Shown: piece by piece, positions 3,461 through 64,000 of the stretch
Position numbering within the stretch: the stretch's first letter is position 1
How the letters are laid out: every line of letters starts with the position of its first letter
Assembly (NCBI GenBank): GCA_049720475.1
Contig: JBNASH010000033.1
Span: forward strand, 3,784 to 67,783
Direction of reading: 5' to 3'
DNA: 64,000 bases
DNA from: Minisyncoccia bacterium
GTDB taxonomy: Bacteria; Patescibacteriota; Minisyncoccia; UBA6257; JAAZHW01
Translations under genes and position numbers: made by a program
The notes under the pieces: generated by a model
Database searches by the model: none
Told to the model about the DNA's origin: nothing
The model's input: only the letters and a program-made list of their open reading frames with translations

Positions 3461-3569
3461 GTTAAAAAATAAATCTCTTTTTCATTGTTTCGTGCCGCCC
3501 ATCGCTATTCTAAAAAGAATAGCGAACCGACCTAAGGACCTCATTCTCAGCGAGAATGAGCGTCATCCT

Positions 3570-5095
<1,526 letters not shown>

Positions 5096-5245
5096 AAAAA
5101 ATTTGATCTAACCCCATCCGATTATTATCGAATGGGACTAATACAACTCAAAGGACGACACGAAACAATGAAGAAAAAATTTATTTTTTGTTATTAATGT
5201 GCTAAAAACGAAAATGATAAATTTATTATCATTTTCGATAGATTT

Positions 5246-48572: not shown

Positions 48573-48633
48573 ACTATTTTTTGTGTTTTTATCTTATCAC
48601 AAAAAATTCTTTTCGTCCACTTTAAAAAACAAA

Positions 48634-48657
48634 AAGGGACTCAAATGAGTCCCTTTA
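48634..48657 (-). terminator. Rho-independent terminator for the lipoprotein gene.
   Basis: On the minus strand, AAAGGGACTCATTTGAGTCCCTTT is followed by TTGTTTTTT. Confidence 0.55.
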
Positions 48658-48663
48658 TAAAAA

Positions 48664-49077
48664 TTACCTTCTTTCCACATACAATCGCCCATCCGACCCT
48701 TGTCGGATGGTGAAAGTATAAGAATATCTGGAATACGAGGAATAAACCCAGAGGGCATCGCTATAAGCGAAGCCCTTTTTATCAATAATCTGAAGTGCTA
48801 CTTGAACGCCATAATAAGATCCATTCCATAATCCTCCAACCCATTTTCCGTAGGATTCCACCACCCCTTTCTCTTCCCCATCAATTAAAACATAAAAATA
48901 ATAAGGAGTGGCGTTGATTACAGTAATACGAGTCGTCTGGATGGGAAGATTGGTATCAACCGCCATCGTTATCCCCAGCGGGGTACAGCTGGAAAACAAC
49001 AGCAGAGCCGCCAACAACCCTAGCAATATCAAAACAATAAAAAATCTCCTTGCGAATTCTTCAATTAATTCTTTCAT
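48664..49077 (-). CDS. Hypothetical lipoprotein.
   Basis: The signal peptide MKELIEEFARRFFIVLILLGLLAALLLFSSC has a lipobox. A canonical SD (AAGGAGG) lies 6 nt upstream of this start. The ORF-track start at 49143 is an extension. Confidence 0.5.
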   Translation of the reverse strand: MKELIEEFARRFFIVLILLGLLAALLLFSSCTPLGITMAVDTNLPIQTTRITVINATPYYFYVLIDGEEKGVVESYGKWVGGLWNGSYYGVQVALQIIDKKGFAYSDALWVYSSYSRYSYTFTIRQGSDGRLYVERR

Positions 49078-49103
49078 TTTTTTCCTCCTTTTAAATTTTA
49101 AAA

Positions 49104-49628
49104 TTAAAATAAAATTTCGTTTTTCCAAAAATGTCTCTGCCAACCATGGGTTGGGGGGACATTAATACCCATTCGTCTGGCCAGTTTAACAACTTCATAA
49201 TCTAAGGAAAGTAATTTTACTTTGCCTTCGCCGCCATTTTTGAGGGCAATGGCTGTCGCCACCACCCGAATATCTGCTATAGAAATGGACTTTAAATTCA
49301 TTTTTTGTGCCTCTAAAATCAAGCTGGGTACAATCCTTTTTCGATAGGATCCAGCAACCTTCCATTCGCCGGATCTAATTTTCTTTTCAATCTGTGGCCA
49401 TCGCCTTAACGCTAAAGCGATGGTTTTTTTCCACTTTTTAACCTCTCCCTTTTGCGGCTTAGTTTTTAGCCGCTTTAATTTTTCAAGATCGGCGGCATTT
49501 CGAAGTTCTTCCACTACTGCCCGCGGAACTACTATCTGAATCTCATCTTCTTTTCCCAACATTTCCACAAAAGCAAAACTTCTCAACAACATATTACTAT
49601 CAACAATCAAAAACAACCTTTCTTCCAT
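49104..49628 (-). CDS. PIN-domain nuclease (VapC-like).
   Basis: Acidic PIN residues fall in LIVDSN, EELRN, IADIRVVATA and LLSLDYEVV. It is preceded by AAGGAGG and a perfect consensus promoter. Confidence 0.65.
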   Translation of the reverse strand: MEERLFLIVDSNMLLRSFAFVEMLGKEDEIQIVVPRAVVEELRNAADLEKLKRLKTKPQKGEVKKWKKTIALALRRWPQIEKKIRSGEWKVAGSYRKRIVPSLILEAQKMNLKSISIADIRVVATAIALKNGGEGKVKLLSLDYEVVKLARRMGINVPPTHGWQRHFWKNEILF

Positions 49629-57537: not shown

Positions 57538-60051
57538 TTAGAAAAGTTTATCCCATTGTTCGTTTTCAACTAAATTAATAAATTCCTGAACATCAGTTGC
57601 ATAACGCGAATCAATTTTTAAAACTTGTTTCGCATATTCGATAGCCTTTTCTTTATTATGTAACTGAGCGTAAGCAGCAGCTAATTTAATAATTATTTGG
57701 AGGCGATTTTTTTGATATTGATTAGCTTTTTCTAAATAGGCAATAACTTTATTGATATGTTCTGGATCTTTAGGTGGATTGCTAATTTCTACAAAAATAG
57801 CCAAATCAATTAACCCTTTGACTTTATTTAACAGAAGGCCTTTTTGGAAAGCCGACAATTTTTTATCTTGAAGCATTGCTTCTGTTTTTTCAATTTCTTG
57901 ATCCACTAAATTAATTAACTTTCCTTGTTGCTGAAAATAAGAAACTTGCGGCATAACATTCATAATGAAATCAGAGGTATTTTCCAAAGAAAACTCATAG
58001 CCATTATCAAAAGCAGTGTTCATATATTTGAAAATTTCCTCCTCGCTTTTTTGATCTTGAATAGCCAAAACTGCCTTCAACCACCAAGCGGGTGCATATT
58101 TAGGAGTTTTCTCTAGCATTTCTGATAATTCCTGTTGTGTTTTTTCTTTTGTTGGCTGACTCAAAACATATTGCAAAATCAAATCGCTTCTTTTCGGATA
58201 ATTTTTCTTCAAAAAACCAAAATATTCATCCATTTCATTTAGGTATAACTGTCTTTCTGTTTCTGATAAATTAGGAAGTTTTGGCATTTGCGAGGCAATA
58301 TAGCTCAAATAAACATAAAAATCTACCATTGGCTCTCTTTTATAACCCGATAGTAATTGATCTTTAATCTTTTCATAATCTTTAATTACTTGATTCGTGT
58401 CAATTTTAATCTGACCAGAGTTGGCATAGGATAAATAAGAAAAGAAGTAATCGGCCCAAGGCTTTTTTATTTCGGTATTAATGAAAGTGTTCAAATTGAC
58501 CGCCTTCTCAAAAATTACAAATCTCCCTTCTAAATCCTGGGGGTTAACCCGATTTGCTTCAAAAACTAATTGGGCGGCCTTATAAGGTTTGTAATCAACA
58601 TGATAAAAGATAAAGGCGGCCACCAATAAAAACGCTCCTATTACTAATACATCCAAAACATCGAGCGAGTTTTTGGAAATAAATTTTTTTGACTCATTTT
58701 TATCATCAATGATATTTTTTCGAATTTTTATATTAGTAGTTGATAAATTGATAAATGCTAAAAAGAAATAGAAAAAGATTGAGTTAGCTGGCGTATCAAA
58801 AACAAAAAAGTTATGAACATTATAGGCTATAAACAAAGAAAAAATGATGATCCAACTAATTTTATCTTTTAATGTTTCGGATGATTTAACTTTTTTATAA
58901 ATCAAATACCCGACCACAAACAACAAAAATAAATAAGCTAGAAAACCAACTATTCCATTCATCACTAAGACATCAAAAAATTTATTATGCGCTCTATCAA
59001 AACGTTCATGACTTAAGGCATAATCATTGGCATCATAATGACTATCAAAAACAGCATAATACATATCTTGGCCATAACCAAAAATAGGTCTTTCTTTCCA
59101 CCAATTAAAACTGCGCTGCCAATTTAAAATACGGGCGCGCGTCGAAGCATCGGACAAAGAAATACTGGCCAAACGACCGATAAAAGGAATTTTTTCGCTA
59201 ATAACACTTTTTTGAATTTTGGGTTGAAAAACAAAAAACAAAACACCCAAAATAATAATCGCGACGGCAACAATAGCACTAATTTTTTTGTATTTTTTAT
59301 CAGGAATAGTAAAAATACTCAAAATTAACCCAACAAACAATCCCAAACCCAAACCTAAAATAGAACCGCGCGTCTGAGCCCACCAAAAAACGAAAAACGA
59401 AACAATGCCCATTATTAATACTAAATTTTTTTGCTGTTTAAACTCAGATTGCTGAATAAAATTAAGATAATACCAAACGATTAAAAACAAATGCACGAGC
59501 AAAAAGCCGGCAAAGAATGTTGGATTGCCAAAAACACCACCGGGCCGGGACAAATTTTCACCTCCCACTACCGGCACAATTTTTAAAATTTCCAAAATAG
59601 GAAAAATAGCGCCAAAAAAACTAATACAAATCGAAGTAAAAATTAATTTGCGGATCGCTTCTTTATCTTCAAAAAAAATCGAAGAAATGGCTAAAAAGAA
59701 AACATAAAAATGAAGCAAAGAAATAAAACCCTCCATTCGCTCAGCATTACCCCAAAAACTACGATAAGGAACAAGGCTAAAAATACAACTAATTAAAATG
59801 GCTAGATAAAAAATTGAGATGGCAATCGTTAAGAGATTAAAATGCGGCTTATATTTTTGAAAATTAATCACCATTAAAATTACCCAGACAAACAAAAGCA
59901 AAAGGACAAAAAACTGAAAAGGAAACATTTTGCCTAAAATAAATGGCCTTAAAATATTAGGCAAAAACATTAATGCGGAAAATAAAGCCGCGCCCACCAA
60001 GAAAAAAGCAACTTTTTTTAAATTTTTCTCCAGAGAAATTAATTGGTTCAT
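57538..60051 (-). CDS. Large membrane protein with an O-antigen ligase-like (Wzy_C) domain and C-terminal TPR repeats.
   Basis: About 12 TM segments, with a Wzy_C-like loop (WWAQTRGSILGLGLGLF). The C-terminal ~350 aa are TPR-like helical repeats. Confidence 0.55.
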   Translation of the reverse strand: MNQLISLEKNLKKVAFFLVGAALFSALMFLPNILRPFILGKMFPFQFFVLLLLFVWVILMVINFQKYKPHFNLLTIAISIFYLAILISCIFSLVPYRSFWGNAERMEGFISLLHFYVFFLAISSIFFEDKEAIRKLIFTSICISFFGAIFPILEILKIVPVVGGENLSRPGGVFGNPTFFAGFLLVHLFLIVWYYLNFIQQSEFKQQKNLVLIMGIVSFFVFWWAQTRGSILGLGLGLFVGLILSIFTIPDKKYKKISAIVAVAIIILGVLFFVFQPKIQKSVISEKIPFIGRLASISLSDASTRARILNWQRSFNWWKERPIFGYGQDMYYAVFDSHYDANDYALSHERFDRAHNKFFDVLVMNGIVGFLAYLFLLFVVGYLIYKKVKSSETLKDKISWIIIFSLFIAYNVHNFFVFDTPANSIFFYFFLAFINLSTTNIKIRKNIIDDKNESKKFISKNSLDVLDVLVIGAFLLVAAFIFYHVDYKPYKAAQLVFEANRVNPQDLEGRFVIFEKAVNLNTFINTEIKKPWADYFFSYLSYANSGQIKIDTNQVIKDYEKIKDQLLSGYKREPMVDFYVYLSYIASQMPKLPNLSETERQLYLNEMDEYFGFLKKNYPKRSDLILQYVLSQPTKEKTQQELSEMLEKTPKYAPAWWLKAVLAIQDQKSEEEIFKYMNTAFDNGYEFSLENTSDFIMNVMPQVSYFQQQGKLINLVDQEIEKTEAMLQDKKLSAFQKGLLLNKVKGLIDLAIFVEISNPPKDPEHINKVIAYLEKANQYQKNRLQIIIKLAAAYAQLHNKEKAIEYAKQVLKIDSRYATDVQEFINLVENEQWDKLF

Positions 60052-60132
60052 TGTTTAAAAAATTTTAAATTAATCTTAATTCGCGACATTAATCTATATT
60101 ATAGACAATAATTTATTTATGACAAACAAAAA

Positions 60133-60156
60133 AGCCCATAAAAGGGCTTTTTGCTT
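60133..60156. terminator. Terminator hairpin.
   Basis: aaaAAGCCCataaaaGGGCTTtttgc. Confidence 0.5.
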
Positions 60157-60171
60157 TAAATCTCAGCAATT

Positions 60172-60990
60172 TTACAATCCCATCTTCTGTTTCAATTCAT
60201 CAATAATTATCAAAACATCTACGCAACGATTATTGCTTAATAATTCATCAGCTTGTTTTAACTGATTTATAACTTCTTCTTTTTCCTCCATACTGAAATC
60301 TATGTAATCAATTTTGTCTTTAATATAATTTAAATCGTCTTCCAAATAAACAGGGCAATGATTAATTTTTTCTTCTGCTTCTGATTTTAAGGCAAAAACT
60401 TTATTTTCTACTTCCTGCAGTTGATTTTGAATTTTAACTATTTCGCTTGCCGATTCGTTTTTATTTGCAATTTGTTTCAAACTCTCTTTTGCTTTGTTGG
60501 TTTCTTTTTGTAATTGTTCGGATAAAATAGCCACTTGTTGAGGATTGGAAATTTGTTTTATTTGATTGGTCAATTCCTCTAAATTCTGAGCAACGGTTTC
60601 AAAAGCCAGCTGATTGTAATAATCACCTACTTTTTTATTTAAATCATTAACGACTGCTTGCGTCAGCATCATTTTCAAATCCAACTTGTATTCAGCCGGC
60701 GCTAAAGCAATTAAGCTTTTATTTATTAAGAGTTTAAAGCTGTAAAGAGGGCTATCAATGGAAGCGGTTTGAGCTAAATTAACGATACCGCCGAACAAAA
60801 GCAAGAAAGCACAAAAAACGGCTGCTAATTTATATTTCCAACCAAAAACAAAAATAGGCGCTTGAGCGCTTTTTATTTCAGTTTTCTCAATTTGGGCCAT
60901 TAAAATTCTTTTGCTTGAATCCAACCATTCTTGATCAGGCCTTATCATCTTTAATTGTTTGATTCTGGCAATAATTTCGGCTTTTTTCAT
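60172..60990 (-). CDS. Hypothetical bitopic coiled-coil protein.
   Basis: 272 aa with one TM segment (AAVFCAFLLLFGGIV) and a long coiled coil. Confidence 0.4.
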   Translation of the reverse strand: MKKAEIIARIKQLKMIRPDQEWLDSSKRILMAQIEKTEIKSAQAPIFVFGWKYKLAAVFCAFLLLFGGIVNLAQTASIDSPLYSFKLLINKSLIALAPAEYKLDLKMMLTQAVVNDLNKKVGDYYNQLAFETVAQNLEELTNQIKQISNPQQVAILSEQLQKETNKAKESLKQIANKNESASEIVKIQNQLQEVENKVFALKSEAEEKINHCPVYLEDDLNYIKDKIDYIDFSMEEKEEVINQLKQADELLSNNRCVDVLIIIDELKQKMGL

Positions 60991-61036
60991 ATTGTCCCTC
61001 TATAATATATAACGAAAAACTTGCCAAAATATTACC

Positions 61037-62746
61037 TTAATAACCAAACCATTGACGATTGGCAATAGCCCGCGTTAAAGGACCAAAATAACCGGTGGCT
61101 GGCAGACCATTTTTCTGCTGGAATTTTTGAATGGCTGCCTTGGTTAGATCCAAAAAATTACCAGTGATTAATCTTTCGCTATAAAGATCGGGTTCTTTTT
61201 CAGAAAGCATCTTTTGCAAACACTTTACTTCATTATCATTTCTTAAACCATAATACAAGTCTCTTTGGAAAAATGAGCAAGAAAGATTTGTTTGATTCAT
61301 TGCGTTCAATTGAGCAATAAGCGTTGATAGCTGGGCTTTTAATTGAGCAATCCGTTGAGTGAGCTGCTCTATTAAAGCAGAATTATTGGAAGCGCTGCTA
61401 GAAATTTGAGCATCATACTTGAATAAAACGCCGCCGGAAGAGCTATCGGTAATTATTGGTAAAAGATAAAGAGTATTGGTATCAACGCCGAAATCATTAA
61501 TCGAGATTGTCCCTTTTTTATTCTCACTACTAACCGTTTCAATCTTTTTGTTGTTACTTTTATCAGTGGTGATATAAACTAAAATAAATTGGGTGTCTTG
61601 AGGAAATTCATAATAAATTTTTAAATCACCTCGGCCGCCACTAATTTTAATCCAGTTGCCAGCATATAAATTTAAATAAGTGCTAGCAGTTAAAGAAACC
61701 ACGCCATATTCCGGCAAATAGGTAGTATAGGGATAAATATGAAAGTTTTTTAAATTAGCATTATCAAAACAATAAAGTTTGCCCAACGAACAATCATTAA
61801 AAAGGAGGGTAATCAACCAATTTTTGAAAATAGTATTAAAATCTTCCGAATAACCATTTTTTGCTAAAGCATAATTGATGGAAGCAATACCAGTTAAATT
61901 AGAACGCAAAGAGTCAACTAAAATTTTAATGCCATACTTCTCAACAATGTATTCTGCTAAAAGATGGACCGCGGCATAATCGCTGTTTGTACCTCTAAAT
62001 TCTAACAAAGAAAAGCTTGGGTTTTGACGTAAATCATTAAGATGTTTTTCTAAAAAACTGCCGCTTAAATTAGTGTTATAACCCAAAAAGGTGGAGAGAT
62101 AATCAGAACGCGCTTCGGCTAACCAGCGCTCATCGTCAGAATTAACAAAAATCCCCTTTTGATTAAACGAAATAAGATGCAATACTTCATGAGAAAGATA
62201 ATAGCCAAGTTGATTAATCGACGCGTCCCAAAAAATACTCGTGCTTAAATAAACCATCTCATGCTGATTGGAAAAATTGCCAGAGGCGGCTGGCAAAGAA
62301 TCAACAAAGCGAGCATAACCAACATAATTTTCTTTCAAAGGATGAATTAAAACATAAATGTGGTAATCATTGTCATAGCCGGGAAGCGCTTCAGAGCCAA
62401 AAGTAGCAACAATTCGTGGATAATCGTACTGCTCAAAATAAGTAGCTAAGGTAGCAAATTTGGCGCTGATGGTGTTTTGATTATTGAAAGAAAGGCTTTG
62501 CCACCAATTAGTATCAACGAAAAAATTAAGTTTATTGGTTTGATAAACAAGGGTGGCATTAAGTTGATTGCGCGAATAATAATCATAATCGCTTTCAACA
62601 TAAAAAACGCTCTGAGAATTAATTGATTGCGCAAAAACAGCTGGCGAGAGAAAAACAAAAAGTGCCGCGATAATAAAGATAATTTTCCAATTAAATATCT
62701 TTTTTGGCATTTTTTTGATTATAAAATAAAAAAGATGAGGTTTCAA
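61037..62746 (-). CDS. Secreted zinc-metallopeptidase-like protein (HExxH) with a C-terminal peptidoglycan-binding domain.
   Basis: Signal peptide IIFIIAALFVFLSPAVFAQS, the HEVLHLISF motif, and a PG_binding_1-like C-terminal domain (...LQKML...GNFLDLTKAAIQKFQQKNGLPATGYFGPLT...). The start may be at the internal MPKKIF. Confidence 0.5.
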   Translation of the reverse strand: MKPHLFYFIIKKMPKKIFNWKIIFIIAALFVFLSPAVFAQSINSQSVFYVESDYDYYSRNQLNATLVYQTNKLNFFVDTNWWQSLSFNNQNTISAKFATLATYFEQYDYPRIVATFGSEALPGYDNDYHIYVLIHPLKENYVGYARFVDSLPAASGNFSNQHEMVYLSTSIFWDASINQLGYYLSHEVLHLISFNQKGIFVNSDDERWLAEARSDYLSTFLGYNTNLSGSFLEKHLNDLRQNPSFSLLEFRGTNSDYAAVHLLAEYIVEKYGIKILVDSLRSNLTGIASINYALAKNGYSEDFNTIFKNWLITLLFNDCSLGKLYCFDNANLKNFHIYPYTTYLPEYGVVSLTASTYLNLYAGNWIKISGGRGDLKIYYEFPQDTQFILVYITTDKSNNKKIETVSSENKKGTISINDFGVDTNTLYLLPIITDSSSGGVLFKYDAQISSSASNNSALIEQLTQRIAQLKAQLSTLIAQLNAMNQTNLSCSFFQRDLYYGLRNDNEVKCLQKMLSEKEPDLYSERLITGNFLDLTKAAIQKFQQKNGLPATGYFGPLTRAIANRQWFGY

Positions 62747-62785
62747 TAATGAAAGGAAAATGAAAGGAAAAAGAAAAGCGGCTGC

Positions 62786-62816
62786 GTTGTCCCAACGCAG
62801 CCGCTTGTTTTTAATT
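62786..62816 (-). terminator. Terminator hairpin for the high-GC ORF.
   Basis: AAGCGGCTGCGttgggacaaCGCAGCCGCTT, flanked by T-rich sequence on the minus strand. Confidence 0.45.
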
Positions 62817-63605
62817 TTCTTCTTGGAAGTCCCTCAGGGACAGGCCCCGAGGGTTTTTTTCTACCTCATCCGCTGCCCGAAGGGGCAATTCCTTGCCCCT
62901 TCTCGCCTCAACCACCCTTCTTTTTTCTTTTATTTTTTTATTTTTAGAAGGGGAAGGGGAGGCAGGGGAGGCAGGCTCCGGTGGTTGTGGCCGAATTAGT
63001 TGCGGTGGACGGGTTGGGATTGGGACTTTTTTAAGCCCCGCTTCCCATTTGGGGTTGGGAAGTCTCCGATCGGACTCAAAGAGTTCGACCGAGACTTTCA
63101 GGATTTCCTCGTCAACCTGACCGACGAGGAAATCCCGCAGGGATTCCTTATCCCGCACATAGTGCGGGATATCAATCATTACTCTCTCTCTTTCTAAGAG
63201 AGAGTAATGATTTCCCTGACGGGCTACCCCTAGGTAGTCCGCCACCAGTTTCCGGCCATGGAACCGTACAACGGTCCCATTCCGGAAAAGAAGTAACCAC
63301 TTCCCCACTTTATTGTTAAAGTGGGGAGTGATAAGTTTGTTCTCCCCAACCACTACAGCCCAGCCCTTGGGACCGGGCACAGAAAGGGAAATCTGAAACC
63401 ACTGGGGCTGCCCCAGTTGGGGCAAAAACACCCAAGGTTTCACAATTCCCCGCTCTACCACCACGCACGGCACTTTCAGCCGTGCTTTTAAAGGATCAAA
63501 GTGGACGCCCTGAAGGGCGCCACTTTTAATCCTCTCCAGAATGTCCTGCGGTTTGGGAATGCGTTCCCAAACCGCCCAGATTTTCAAAAAATTACTCCTG
63601 ATCAT
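62811..63605 (-). CDS. Hypothetical protein encoded in an anomalously high-GC (~50%) segment, with a Pro-rich linker and a basic tail.
   Basis: An uninterrupted 264-codon ORF in ~50% GC DNA. A GGAGGT SD lies 6 nt upstream of the ATG, and TTGACT, 16 nt, TATTCT is further upstream. No family was recognised. Confidence 0.45.
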   Translation of the reverse strand: MIRSNFLKIWAVWERIPKPQDILERIKSGALQGVHFDPLKARLKVPCVVVERGIVKPWVFLPQLGQPQWFQISLSVPGPKGWAVVVGENKLITPHFNNKVGKWLLLFRNGTVVRFHGRKLVADYLGVARQGNHYSLLERERVMIDIPHYVRDKESLRDFLVGQVDEEILKVSVELFESDRRLPNPKWEAGLKKVPIPTRPPQLIRPQPPEPASPASPSPSKNKKIKEKRRVVEARRGKELPLRAADEVEKNPRGLSLRDFQEEN

Positions 63606-63719
63606 TTAAAACCTCCTATTAAATTTTTAACAAGGTGTGGCCCGGGCCGATAGCCCTAAGGTTCACCTTGTTGCTGTTTTAAGAATATCATAAAAATACA
63701 AAAAGTCAATAGGGTTGAA

Positions 63720-63752
63720 GAATAAAAGCGGGCTTAAAAGCCCGCTTTTTTT
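63720..63752. terminator. Bidirectional terminator hairpin.
   Basis: aataAAAGCGGGCttaaaaGCCCGCTTTttttc. Confidence 0.5.
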
Positions 63753-63931
63753 CTTTCGCCCTTTTCCTTCTTCCTGTCCTCTAGGACAGAAAGAAGGACC
63801 ATTAAAAAGACTGAGAACAGCATCAGTCCCCCAGTCAACCCCGTCCATCCAACCTTTTCCTGTCCCCACGGCCGAAAGGCGTAGAGAACCAGATTCTCAA
63901 TTAATAACAAAAACAATAAAAAATATTTCAT
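63734..63931 (-). CDS. Possible small membrane protein (2 TM).
   Basis: MKYFLLFLLLIENLVLYAF...LMLFSVFLMVLLSVLED followed by a basic tail. It ends at a terminator hairpin. Confidence 0.3.
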   Translation of the reverse strand: MKYFLLFLLLIENLVLYAFRPWGQEKVGWTGLTGGLMLFSVFLMVLLSVLEDRKKEKGERKKAGF

Positions 63932-64000
63932 CAAAAAACCTCCTTTCTTTTTTTTAAAAAGCTTCTTATATTCCAGCATAAAAATTTAAAAAAGTCAATA

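Follow-up and report, generated by a model that had tools for sequence, protein, structure and literature searches.

A 64-kb stretch of Minisyncoccia DNA (hereafter the window) carries on its minus strand, at 62811-63605, an open reading frame (ORF) of 264 amino acids (aa) in which two strong inverted repeats are embedded. The initial annotation had pointed to these repeats, and both are present, with perfect stems of 16 and 11 base pairs (bp). The arms of palindrome 1, at 63174-63189 and 63197-63212, are 16 nucleotides (nt) each, 100% complementary and separated by a 7-nt spacer; folded as RNA, they form 17 bp closed by a 5-nt loop. On the minus strand this palindrome encodes ...NHYSLLERERVMI..., in agreement with the earlier reading. 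Palindrome 2 is TCCCCACTTTA ttgt TAAAGTGGGGA at 63302-63327, with a perfect stem of 11 bp that reaches 16 bp across 63296-63332 with one bulge. The positions first described were right except for the start of palindrome 2, which at ~63293 was slightly off. The ORF had also been noted as high in guanine plus cytosine (GC), and it does have a GC content of about 51%, compared with 34% for the whole window, in which only the 16S ribosomal RNA (rRNA) gene and the 264-aa gene exceed 50%.

Folding of the 264-aa gene

Local folding of the transcript placed the two palindromes in a series of about 15 hairpins, with folding energies (dG) from -10 to -28 kcal/mol, that cover nearly all of gene nt 26-546 and the 3' end. 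Within nt 26-546, successive hairpins are mostly separated by 0-8 unpaired nt, and two further hairpins near the 3' end of the gene are followed by the terminator. The gene and its hairpins are listed here with gene nt positions and dG in kcal/mol; helix numbers recur in the covariation analysis below, and GC3 denotes GC at third codon positions.

62811-63605, minus strand: ORF of 264 aa, GC 51%, GC3 55%; conserved protein, unmatched fold
63544-63580, minus strand: hairpin at nt 26-62, 12-bp perfect core GCGGUUUGGGAA/UUCCCAAACCGC, dG -21.7
63490-63535, minus strand: hairpin at nt 71-116, 20 bp with bulges, dG -27.7; helix 3, 92.5% paired
63465-63485, minus strand: hairpin at nt 121-141, GCACGGC ugaaagu GCCGUGC; kept in clades A, B and C
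63386-63450, minus strand: long imperfect stem around the hairpin at 63409-63424; helices 6 and 7
63353-63382, minus strand: hairpin at nt 224-253, 12 bp, dG -16.3; helix 8
63296-63332, minus strand: hairpin at nt 274-310, palindrome 2, 11-bp core at 63302-63327, 16 bp in total; helix 9
63249-63288, minus strand: hairpin at nt 318-357, 17 bp, dG -24.3; helix 10, 99.3% paired
63214-63248, minus strand: hairpin at nt 358-392, 13 bp, dG -15.1; helix 11
63174-63212, minus strand: hairpin at nt 394-432, palindrome 1, 16-17 bp perfect, dG -23.2; helix 12
63149-63171, minus strand: hairpin at nt 435-457, UAUCCCGCAC uau GUGCGGGAUA, 10 bp perfect
63099-63137, minus strand: hairpin at nt 469-507, 13-bp perfect core, 17 bp in total, dG -25.6; helix 14
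63060-63097, minus strand: hairpin at nt 509-546, 16 bp, dG -18.0; helix 15
62879-62902, minus strand: hairpin at nt 704-727, GAAGGGGCAA ggaa UUGCCCCUUC, 10 bp perfect
62831-62853, minus strand: hairpin at nt 753-775, CCCUCGGGG ccugu CCCUGAGGG, with a G·U pair in the sense strand

The view that such palindromes are not expected in a coding region was borne out by synonymous-codon shuffles, which preserve both the protein and its codon usage. Perfect hairpins of at least 8 bp occurred in 1000 shuffles with a mean of 0.28 and a maximum of 3, while 7 were observed in the gene. The minimum free energy of the gene was -405 kcal/mol, compared with -279 ± 9 kcal/mol for the codon shuffles (z = -14), and the whole transcript reached z = -16.8 against dinucleotide shuffles. 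When the 57 non-overlapping window ORFs of at least 120 aa were ranked, the gene was an outlier at z = -14.5; the next ORF stood at -4.4 and most lay between -2 and +2. The 795 nt of the gene contain six of the window's 22 perfect hairpins of 10 bp or more, and most of the others are terminator-like. The mean unpaired probability was 0.295, compared with 0.37-0.40 for the gene's own shuffles and 0.43-0.48 for neighbouring genes; the first 795 nt of the organism's 16S rRNA, at 0.35, lie above the gene as well. The stems are predicted to remain more than 50% paired up to 85 °C. Protein sequence and codon usage require far less structure than this, and the structure brings GC, GC3 included, up to the level of rRNA.

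Conservation of the pairing and the strand on which it acts

Ortholog DNA was obtained as 18 further distinct sequences, giving 19 with the window gene. Locus designations (L numbers) are used here to assign them to clade A (window, L016, L001), clade B (L002, L004, L005, L007, L010, L014), clade C (L009, L011, L013, L017-L022) and clade D (L023). Nucleotide identity among clades A, B and C is 54-59%, and between clade D and the rest 47-50%. Gene order is constant where flanks were available: small membrane-protein gene, 264-aa gene, a PG_binding_1 gene (557 aa), a 273-aa gene and Wzy_C. In all 19 sequences the gene is richer in GC (44-60%) than its flanks (33-49%), and ortholog GC3 is 0.44-0.66, compared with 0.24-0.32 in the adjacent gene. 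Folding exceeds the synonymous-codon controls throughout, with z values from -3 to -22 over the 19 sequences (-14 in the window gene, -10 to -22 in clades A and B, -3 to -6 in clades C and D). Since the anomaly of GC and folding is present in every ortholog, an assembly artefact, a recent horizontal transfer and chance are excluded. Over deeper divergence, conservation of four-fold degenerate sites exceeds that in the neighbouring gene (0.69 and 0.39, window against L002), with GC3 at 0.55-0.66 against 0.30.

We derived a consensus structure for clades A and B with RNAalifold (8 sequences, 199 pairs, 17 helices). In this structure 92.7% of alignment cells were paired, compared with 36-48% when the partners were slid, and 39 pairs had changed on both sides, compared with 9-13 when slid; none of 500 shuffles reached the observed values. 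For clade C alone, 94.9% of cells were paired as opposed to 39-52%, and 20 pairs were doubly changed as opposed to 3-9, again with 0 of 500 shuffles reaching this level. The structures were derived from the same alignments on which they were tested, which favours them; the margins are large, and synonymous double changes are independent of the choice by which the structure was derived. Palindrome 1 (helix 12) was 96.9% paired over the 8 sequences, with 5 of its 16 pairs changed on both sides, and these changes reach into the protein, where His>Arg (CAU>CGC) is coupled to Met>Ala (AUG>GCG). For palindrome 2 (helix 9) the paired share was 90.4%, and 5 of 17 pairs were doubly changed. The initial annotation had named synonymous divergence that breaks the palindromes in homologous genes as the sign of a coincidence confined to this copy; in the nearer clades the opposite was seen, the sequences having diverged with the pairing kept.

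The stem at nt 121-141, kept in clades A, B and C, illustrates how the pairing follows the sequence. Clade A has GCACGGC/GCCGUGC, some of clade B GCACGGG/CCCGUGC and clade C GCAAGGG/CCCUUGC, and in the last step Arg CGG>AGG is paired with Pro CCG>CCU, a synonymous change on both sides. Helix 10 is a perfect 9-10-bp stem in clade B (10 bp in L002 and L010, AUGGAACCGU/ACGGUUCCAU). Elsewhere the hairpins themselves turn over. Clade B lacks the first hairpin of clade A (nt 31-58) and has in its place one that lies about 25 nt farther along the gene. At nt 435-457 clade B has UGUCCCGCAC/GUGCGGGACA and L009 an unrelated 11-bp hairpin, and at nt 469-507 the stem of L001 is perfect over 18 bp and partly different in sequence. 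The position of nt 704-727 holds CGGAGAGGAA..UUCCUCUCCG in clade B. The hairpin at nt 753-775 becomes CCCGCGGGG..CCCUGCGGG in clade B and, in clade C (helix 27, 11 pairs), UCCAGUU-GCCC, a GAAA, GCAA or GGAA loop and GGGCAACUGGA; one unpaired G or C interrupts it in 7 of 9 sequences, and a continuous 12 bp is found only in L009 and L018. Also in clade C, palindrome 1 is a weaker, G·U-rich stem and palindrome 2 is essentially lost. Since hairpins shift, lengthen and are replaced between clades, what is conserved is the amount of local pairing and not a fixed architecture, and selection appears, from these alignments, to act on that amount. Arms made of in-frame reverse-complement codons were found in 68 of 127 hairpins, a moderate preference; a codon-phase rule was therefore rejected as defining the palindromes.

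We then compared the two strands. The consensus energy for clades A and B was -245 kcal/mol for the sense strand and -178 kcal/mol for the antisense strand, and single sequences favoured the sense strand by 30-47 kcal/mol, compared with a difference of only ~11 kcal/mol in shuffles. At pairs whose commonest state is Watson-Crick, deviating cells were G·U in 105 cases and A·C in 47, a count biased toward G·U because the structure was derived from the sense strand; a strand-neutral mismatch count gave 13 G·U and 4 A·C, which are too few events. The sense preference of clade C is moderate (-139 versus -132 kcal/mol). A function of the palindromes in DNA would be strand-symmetric, and the evidence therefore favours sense RNA, strongly in clades A and B and only weakly in clade C.

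These observations bear on explanations at the level of DNA, in which the palindromes would form cruciforms or single-stranded hairpins for recombination, nicking or replication, or would arise as a by-product of template switching that perfects quasi-palindromes. Such an origin would be in keeping with the many perfect stems (16/16, 13/13, 12/12, and 18/18 in L001), as template switching would yield, and with the clustering of divergence between the near-identical window and L001 sequences in particular hairpins. It is nevertheless highly improbable, as G·U is tolerated in the sense strand far above A·C, the palindromes are unique in the window rather than repeated, and the feature coincides exactly with transcription units, from 5' untranslated region (UTR) to terminator. 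Template switching may help to keep the stems perfect; it does not explain their existence, since raised GC and GC3 need selection, and a copying mechanism is therefore no explanation. The recombination, nicking or attachment site first proposed lacks support: neither palindrome recurs in the 64-kb window when up to 3 mismatches are allowed, so no repeat family or attachment site was seen there, neither a recombinase nor a relaxase was found among the neighbouring genes, and the ortholog sequences vary with pairing kept. Repeated palindromic elements (repetitive extragenic palindromes and bacterial interspersed mosaic elements, REP/BIME; miniature inverted-repeat transposable elements, MITE; integron attC; attachment sites) were rejected on the same uniqueness, on the location inside an ORF and on the fact that the ~15 hairpins are all different. 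A protein-binding operator, the second earlier proposal, was likewise set aside, because the ~15 palindromes differ and have no common sequence, and what persists is complementarity rather than the sequence of a half-site; the 39 doubly changed pairs of clades A and B and the tolerance of G·U above A·C also led us to reject a DNA operator palindrome. Only the third proposal, an embedded structured RNA element, fits, with the correction that the whole mRNA is structured and not one element within it.

The protein and the transcript

The reading frame is itself conserved. Substitutions among orthologs are most frequent at codon position 3, then 1, then 2, indels are in frame, and the ORF, its Shine-Dalgarno (SD) sequence and the in-frame indels are conserved in the 19 sequences. 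Homologous proteins are rare: a search of 5.8 billion proteins gave 11 (47-100% identity; those with a name belong to Patescibacteria/Minisyncoccia), a profile search of 1.8 billion cluster representatives gave only 15 at E ≤ 0.001, and remote homologs are 21-33% identical. GTDB species genomes gave only one weak match, L015, which is probably a spurious low-complexity hit. With an alignment of 23 sequences, AlphaFold reached a predicted local distance difference test score (pLDDT) of 81.5, exceeding 90 for residues 1-175; this supersedes an earlier, poor model from 11 sequences (pLDDT 49). The protein is laid out as a β-rich domain with three helices, a Pro/Gln-rich linker, a Lys/Arg-rich stretch and a C-terminal peptide NPRG[LM]SLRDF. 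Searches of Pfam, PHROGs, NCBIfam, the Protein Data Bank (PDB) and of folds gave no family or fold match for the 264-aa protein, and neither a capsid-like fold nor relatives of the gene on viral contigs were found. Evolutionary evidence for a truly coding ORF is strong.

This evidence decides against a non-coding structured RNA that happens to contain an ORF, and against a recent GC-rich transfer with chance palindromes. GC-rich sequence does have few stop codons, and the protein belongs to no known family. Both ideas are effectively refuted by the conserved frame, SD sequence and substitution pattern, by the remote homologs and the confident AlphaFold model, and by the codon shuffles, which exclude chance palindromes; recent transfer is excluded in addition because synteny is conserved across clades that are 54-59% identical in nucleotides. 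It is very probable, taking all parts jointly, that the hairpins are real, are under selection, act in the sense RNA and coexist with a real protein.

The tail of the protein (residues ~196-264; 62811-63020, minus strand) consists of the linker, which varies in length, the Lys/Arg-rich stretch and the conserved NPRG[LM]SLRDFxEE, which is recognisable in remote homologs as G[AM]S[LA]xD[VF]. Hub-binding tails, for instance those of FtsZ or SSB, have a similar layout. Within the linker, ASPASP is encoded by a tandem 10-nt repeat, GGGGAGGCAG x2 on the plus strand at 62956-62975, of which L001 has one copy only, as judged from its shorter aligned linker.

The structured zone matches the predicted transcription unit, a monocistronic minus-strand transcript from ~63675 to 62776, whose ends carry the following features.

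63682-63709, minus strand: promoter-like site TTGACT, 16 nt, TG-n-TATTCT (extended -10), from a sequence scan
63629-63672, minus strand: 5' UTR stem-loop near the 5' end, outer stem AACAAGGUG/CACCUUGUU, conserved
63641-63661, minus strand: 5' UTR inner hairpin GGGC-UAUCG-GCCC, from alignment and folding
63612-63616, minus strand: SD sequence GGAGG, 6 nt before ATG, read from the sequence
62776-62806, minus strand: intrinsic terminator, 14-bp stem and U tract, terminator-like on both strands

The motif TTGACTTTT..TTTT.TG.TAT precedes the gene at 17 of 23 fetched loci and was also found aligned across orthologs. The 5' UTR element begins a few nt past the likely transcription start site. Promoter and element are conserved over clades A-C, and both stems are retained through compensatory changes: clades A and B have CAAGGUG..CACCUUG as the outer and GGGC-UAUCG-GCCC as the inner stem, and clade C has GUGAAGUG..CACUUCAC and GCUC-UAUCG-GAGC. 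Unpaired nucleotides of the element, GAACCUUAG ... UAUCG ... GGGCCACAC, are invariant across these clades. Because this sequence conservation exceeds what a mere 5' cap hairpin would need, the element may be a binding site. No other part of the transcript is as open as the AU-rich initiation region (-22 to +24); in clades A and B the unpaired probability of this region is 0.42-0.55, compared with 0.22-0.26 in the body of the coding sequence, about twofold. At the other end, the same terminator lies 3' of the gene in L002, L004 and L007. A terminator scan found no site inside the ORF on the gene's own minus strand, and the ORF hairpins were accordingly rejected as intrinsic terminators or attenuators; the single match in the ORF is a weak 6-pair site on the plus strand (62842-62856). 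Beside the small upstream gene, terminator-like sites lie at 63724-63749 (plus strand) and 63831-63813 (minus strand). Antisense promoter-like matches were limited to two weak 9/12 sites on the plus strand.

Possible roles, known systems and neighbouring genes

Our preferred interpretation, to which we assign a probability of about 40-45%, is that the gene may specify an mRNA optimised for persistence and yet translatable. We favour it because the transcript ends are capped, the loading site is open, the hairpins are local, free of motifs and interchangeable, and double-stranded RNA resists hydrolysis and nucleases specific for single strands. In such a scheme the coding sequence would have evolved into a near-continuous chain of ~15 local hairpins of ~35-50 nt each, removing the single-stranded stretches that are the substrates of endonucleases and of spontaneous hydrolysis. 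The stem-loop near the 5' terminus and the 14-bp terminator would cap both ends, and the AU-rich initiation region with its perfect GGAGG would stay comparatively open, so that ribosomes could load and unwind the hairpins singly. Where mRNA is double-stranded, it is reported to be protected against cleavage, both in-line and enzymatic (PMC7457604), and a strongly structured coding sequence can increase stability and output (PMC8940940).

Several points weigh against this interpretation. All RNA structures are computed, and to the bias of the G·U count and the moderate sense preference of clade C, given above, must be added that clade C keeps the protein with much weaker structure, so that structure is not required for the protein as such. 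Other genes of the window, including presumably well-expressed ones, have no such folding, and stability alone is therefore insufficient to single out this gene. Stems that pair perfectly over 16-18 bp could delay ribosomes and might be cleaved by RNase III. Finally, the protein has no known role that would call for a persistent mRNA.

An RNA of dual function, in which the hairpin chain is itself functional as a double-stranded platform or scaffold bound by the encoded protein or another partner, is unlikely in our view, although several features would suit it. Its structural density equals or exceeds that of rRNA, its GC island resembles those of structural RNAs, and the protein joins an unmatched fold to a Pro/Gln-rich linker, a basic stretch and a conserved C-terminal peptide, the Lys/Arg-rich tail being disordered. 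To these may be added the 5' UTR element, with conserved unpaired nucleotides and covarying stems, and an unrelated orphan ORF at L004 (described below), equally packed with hairpins behind the same type of promoter. In variants of this explanation the RNA could be packaged, localised or processed into small RNAs. It is opposed by the absence of a common loop or stem motif for a specific binder, by the turnover of hairpins between clades without a single architecture, and by the lack of the multi-helix junctions or long-range pairs that large functional RNAs typically have. There is also no Rfam match, no location on viral contigs and no capsid-like fold.

The hairpins might instead slow or gate elongation, through temperature-dependent melting or helicase dependence, and so time or limit protein production in a gene cluster of cell-wall or lysis-like character. 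The neighbours do include a holin-like small membrane protein, a lytic transglycosylase and PG_binding_1 proteins, the small gene also has a conserved 16-bp coding hairpin, and stems that stay more than 50% paired up to 85 °C would melt gradually. Translating ribosomes, however, unwind hairpins, a strong promoter and a perfect SD sequence point to high output, and the ribosome-binding site and start codon are comparatively open rather than sequestered, unlike in known RNA thermometers, so that a thermometer of the ROSE or fourU kind was rejected. We consider such a throttle distinctly unlikely.

The closest parallel to a persistent but translatable mRNA is engineered. In 'superfolder' mRNAs (Wayment-Steele et al., PMC7457604; Leppek et al., PMC8940940) synonymous choice likewise maximises pairing, and they share with the present gene a low unpaired probability (0.295 here) and an open 5' initiation region. 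Protection from hydrolysis and nucleases is their designed purpose, whereas a role in stability is our inference for the gene; they are human therapeutic designs, and the gene has evolved naturally, with amino acids co-varying too (His/Met to Arg/Ala). If the mRNA is indeed long-lived, nature would have reached the solution now engineered for vaccines, and the gene would offer a natural model for how ribosomes handle such templates.

Functional structure within coding RNA is already known from RNA viruses, hok-type mRNAs and weak genome-wide trends. The genomes of single-stranded RNA phages (MS2, Qbeta), and of RNA viruses generally, are coding RNAs dense with conserved, covarying hairpins, kept inside reading frames through covariation as in the present gene. 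This gene differs from those of the phages in lying in chromosomal DNA with conserved synteny, without replicase or coat homology, and in its absence from viral contigs. The mRNAs of type I toxins (hok) are compact and stable, with conserved pairings that extend into the coding region, and the adjoining 65-aa membrane-protein gene resembles such toxins or holins; the present gene, in contrast, encodes a 264-aa soluble protein and has no 5'-3' fold-back. Stem-loops at the 5' end and strong SD sequences stabilise the ompA and cryIIIA (STAB-SD) mRNAs, and stabilisation of this type is also described for hbs mRNA (PMC5737220). Here too a stem-loop lies a few nt from the 5' end and the SD sequence is perfect, to which the gene adds a strong 3' terminator. 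In those mRNAs the elements are in untranslated regions, whereas in this gene the same logic appears to span the whole coding sequence.

Weak genome-wide selection for local structure in bacterial coding regions was reportedly found by Katz and Burge in 2003, and a weak genome-wide trend of selection on mRNA structure in bacterial coding sequence is described in PMC3763529. That trend is a slight statistical shift, usually faint; in the present gene structure selection is dominant (z = -14, with explicit covariation), lifts GC by ~17 points to the level of rRNA, forces coupled amino-acid replacements and persists across clades sharing only ~55% nucleotide identity. OLE, GOLLD, ROOL and HEARO likewise form GC islands in AT-rich genomes, with covariation and very low folding energy, and a screen for structured RNAs by GC content (PMC6429828) would flag the composition of this gene as well. 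These RNAs are intergenic, non-coding and multi-junction, whereas the gene is an ORF folded as a simple chain of local hairpins, without an Rfam match. Structured-RNA screens confined to intergenic regions would miss such genes. At the Rfam gathering score the whole window gave only 16S rRNA and tRNAs, and loci L001, L002 and L004 gave nothing; at E ≤ 1, window 60000-64000 gave only sub-threshold terminator-like matches. A full-text literature search returned no description of the gene or of such folding in a bacterial chromosomal gene. A chromosomal bacterial gene that is folded tighter than the organism's own rRNA appears to be new, as does covariation reaching the protein sequence.

Excess folding recurs in part of the neighbourhood. 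Immediately upstream lies a second gene with a conserved coding hairpin:

63734-63931, minus strand: gene for a 65-aa two-helix membrane protein, weakly holin-like; conserved coding hairpin

Its product matches Pfam Phage_holin_2 at E = 4.7e-4, below the family cut-off. The hairpin (15-16 bp, 63765-63798) has arms that are compensated between clades (UCCUUCUUUCUGUCC versus UCUCCUUUCUGUCC), and the gene folds at z ~ -4 in three orthologs. The promoter motif of the 264-aa gene is of the type TATTGACTTTTT..TATGATAT; its first part, TATTGACTTTTT, recurs at 63989-64000 for the 65-aa gene. At L004 (GCA_026415775.1, JAOAGL010000001.1, 4148-4890) an extra monocistronic cassette stands between the small membrane-protein gene and the 264-aa gene, with the same TTGACT...TATAAT promoter type and a GGAGG site. 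The 197-aa orphan ORF of this cassette has no homolog but itself among 5.8 billion proteins, a GC content of 54% and z = -15 against codon shuffles; ten perfect hairpins of 9 bp or more lie inside the ORF and just ahead of it. A 620-aa PG_binding_1 gene further upstream, beyond the window end at 64000 (L002:1345-3207, L004:465-2327), has a moderately raised GC content of 0.40-0.45 and a significant folding excess (z = -10.7 against codon shuffles), while the downstream PG_binding_1 paralog (window 61037-62746) has no excess folding (z = 0). The remaining genes of the locus mostly lie between z = -3.5 and +2, without sustained excess.

The 264-aa gene, the holin-like gene, the L004 orphan ORF and, more weakly, the PG_binding_1 gene are candidates for a class of 'coding structured RNAs', that is, neighbouring, separately transcribed genes of Patescibacteria whose transcripts would be functional as RNA. 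The 264-aa gene and the orphan have one promoter motif in common, of which the holin-like gene has only the first part. That the 264-aa gene is the first of such a class is doubtful; if its RNA does have a function of its own, it would be a bifunctional RNA of a new kind, from the Candidate Phyla Radiation, a group still poorly understood. One possibility would be a self-encoding ribonucleoprotein, in which the basic-tailed protein of new fold coats or packages its own hairpin-chain mRNA; another would be a store of dormant mRNA for a particular life stage of an episymbiont.

Some further observations concern the surroundings. The leader of the 620-aa PG_binding_1 gene (L002:1050-1345) contains several hairpins (z = -12 in a 300-nt window), matches no Rfam family and could be an undescribed cis-regulatory RNA. 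The second most structured ORF of the window, at 48664-49143 (159 aa, GC 0.39, z = -4.4), has two perfect 10-bp hairpins just downstream, at 48576-48607 and 48633-48656. A complete bacterial 16S rRNA gene lies at 3569-5099 (minus strand), the only rRNA gene detected in the window; its GC content of 54% is not indicative of a strong thermophile. The window and L001 are 98-100% identical over 60800-62700 and 78-98% identical over 62700-64000, with the lowest identity at 63001-63200 and 63501-63600 and with changes clustered in particular hairpins. A mutational hot spot was rejected for this pattern, which combines local clusters of change with a recombination-type boundary; to judge from the alignment, the step at ~62700, at the 3' end of the gene, looks like such a boundary.

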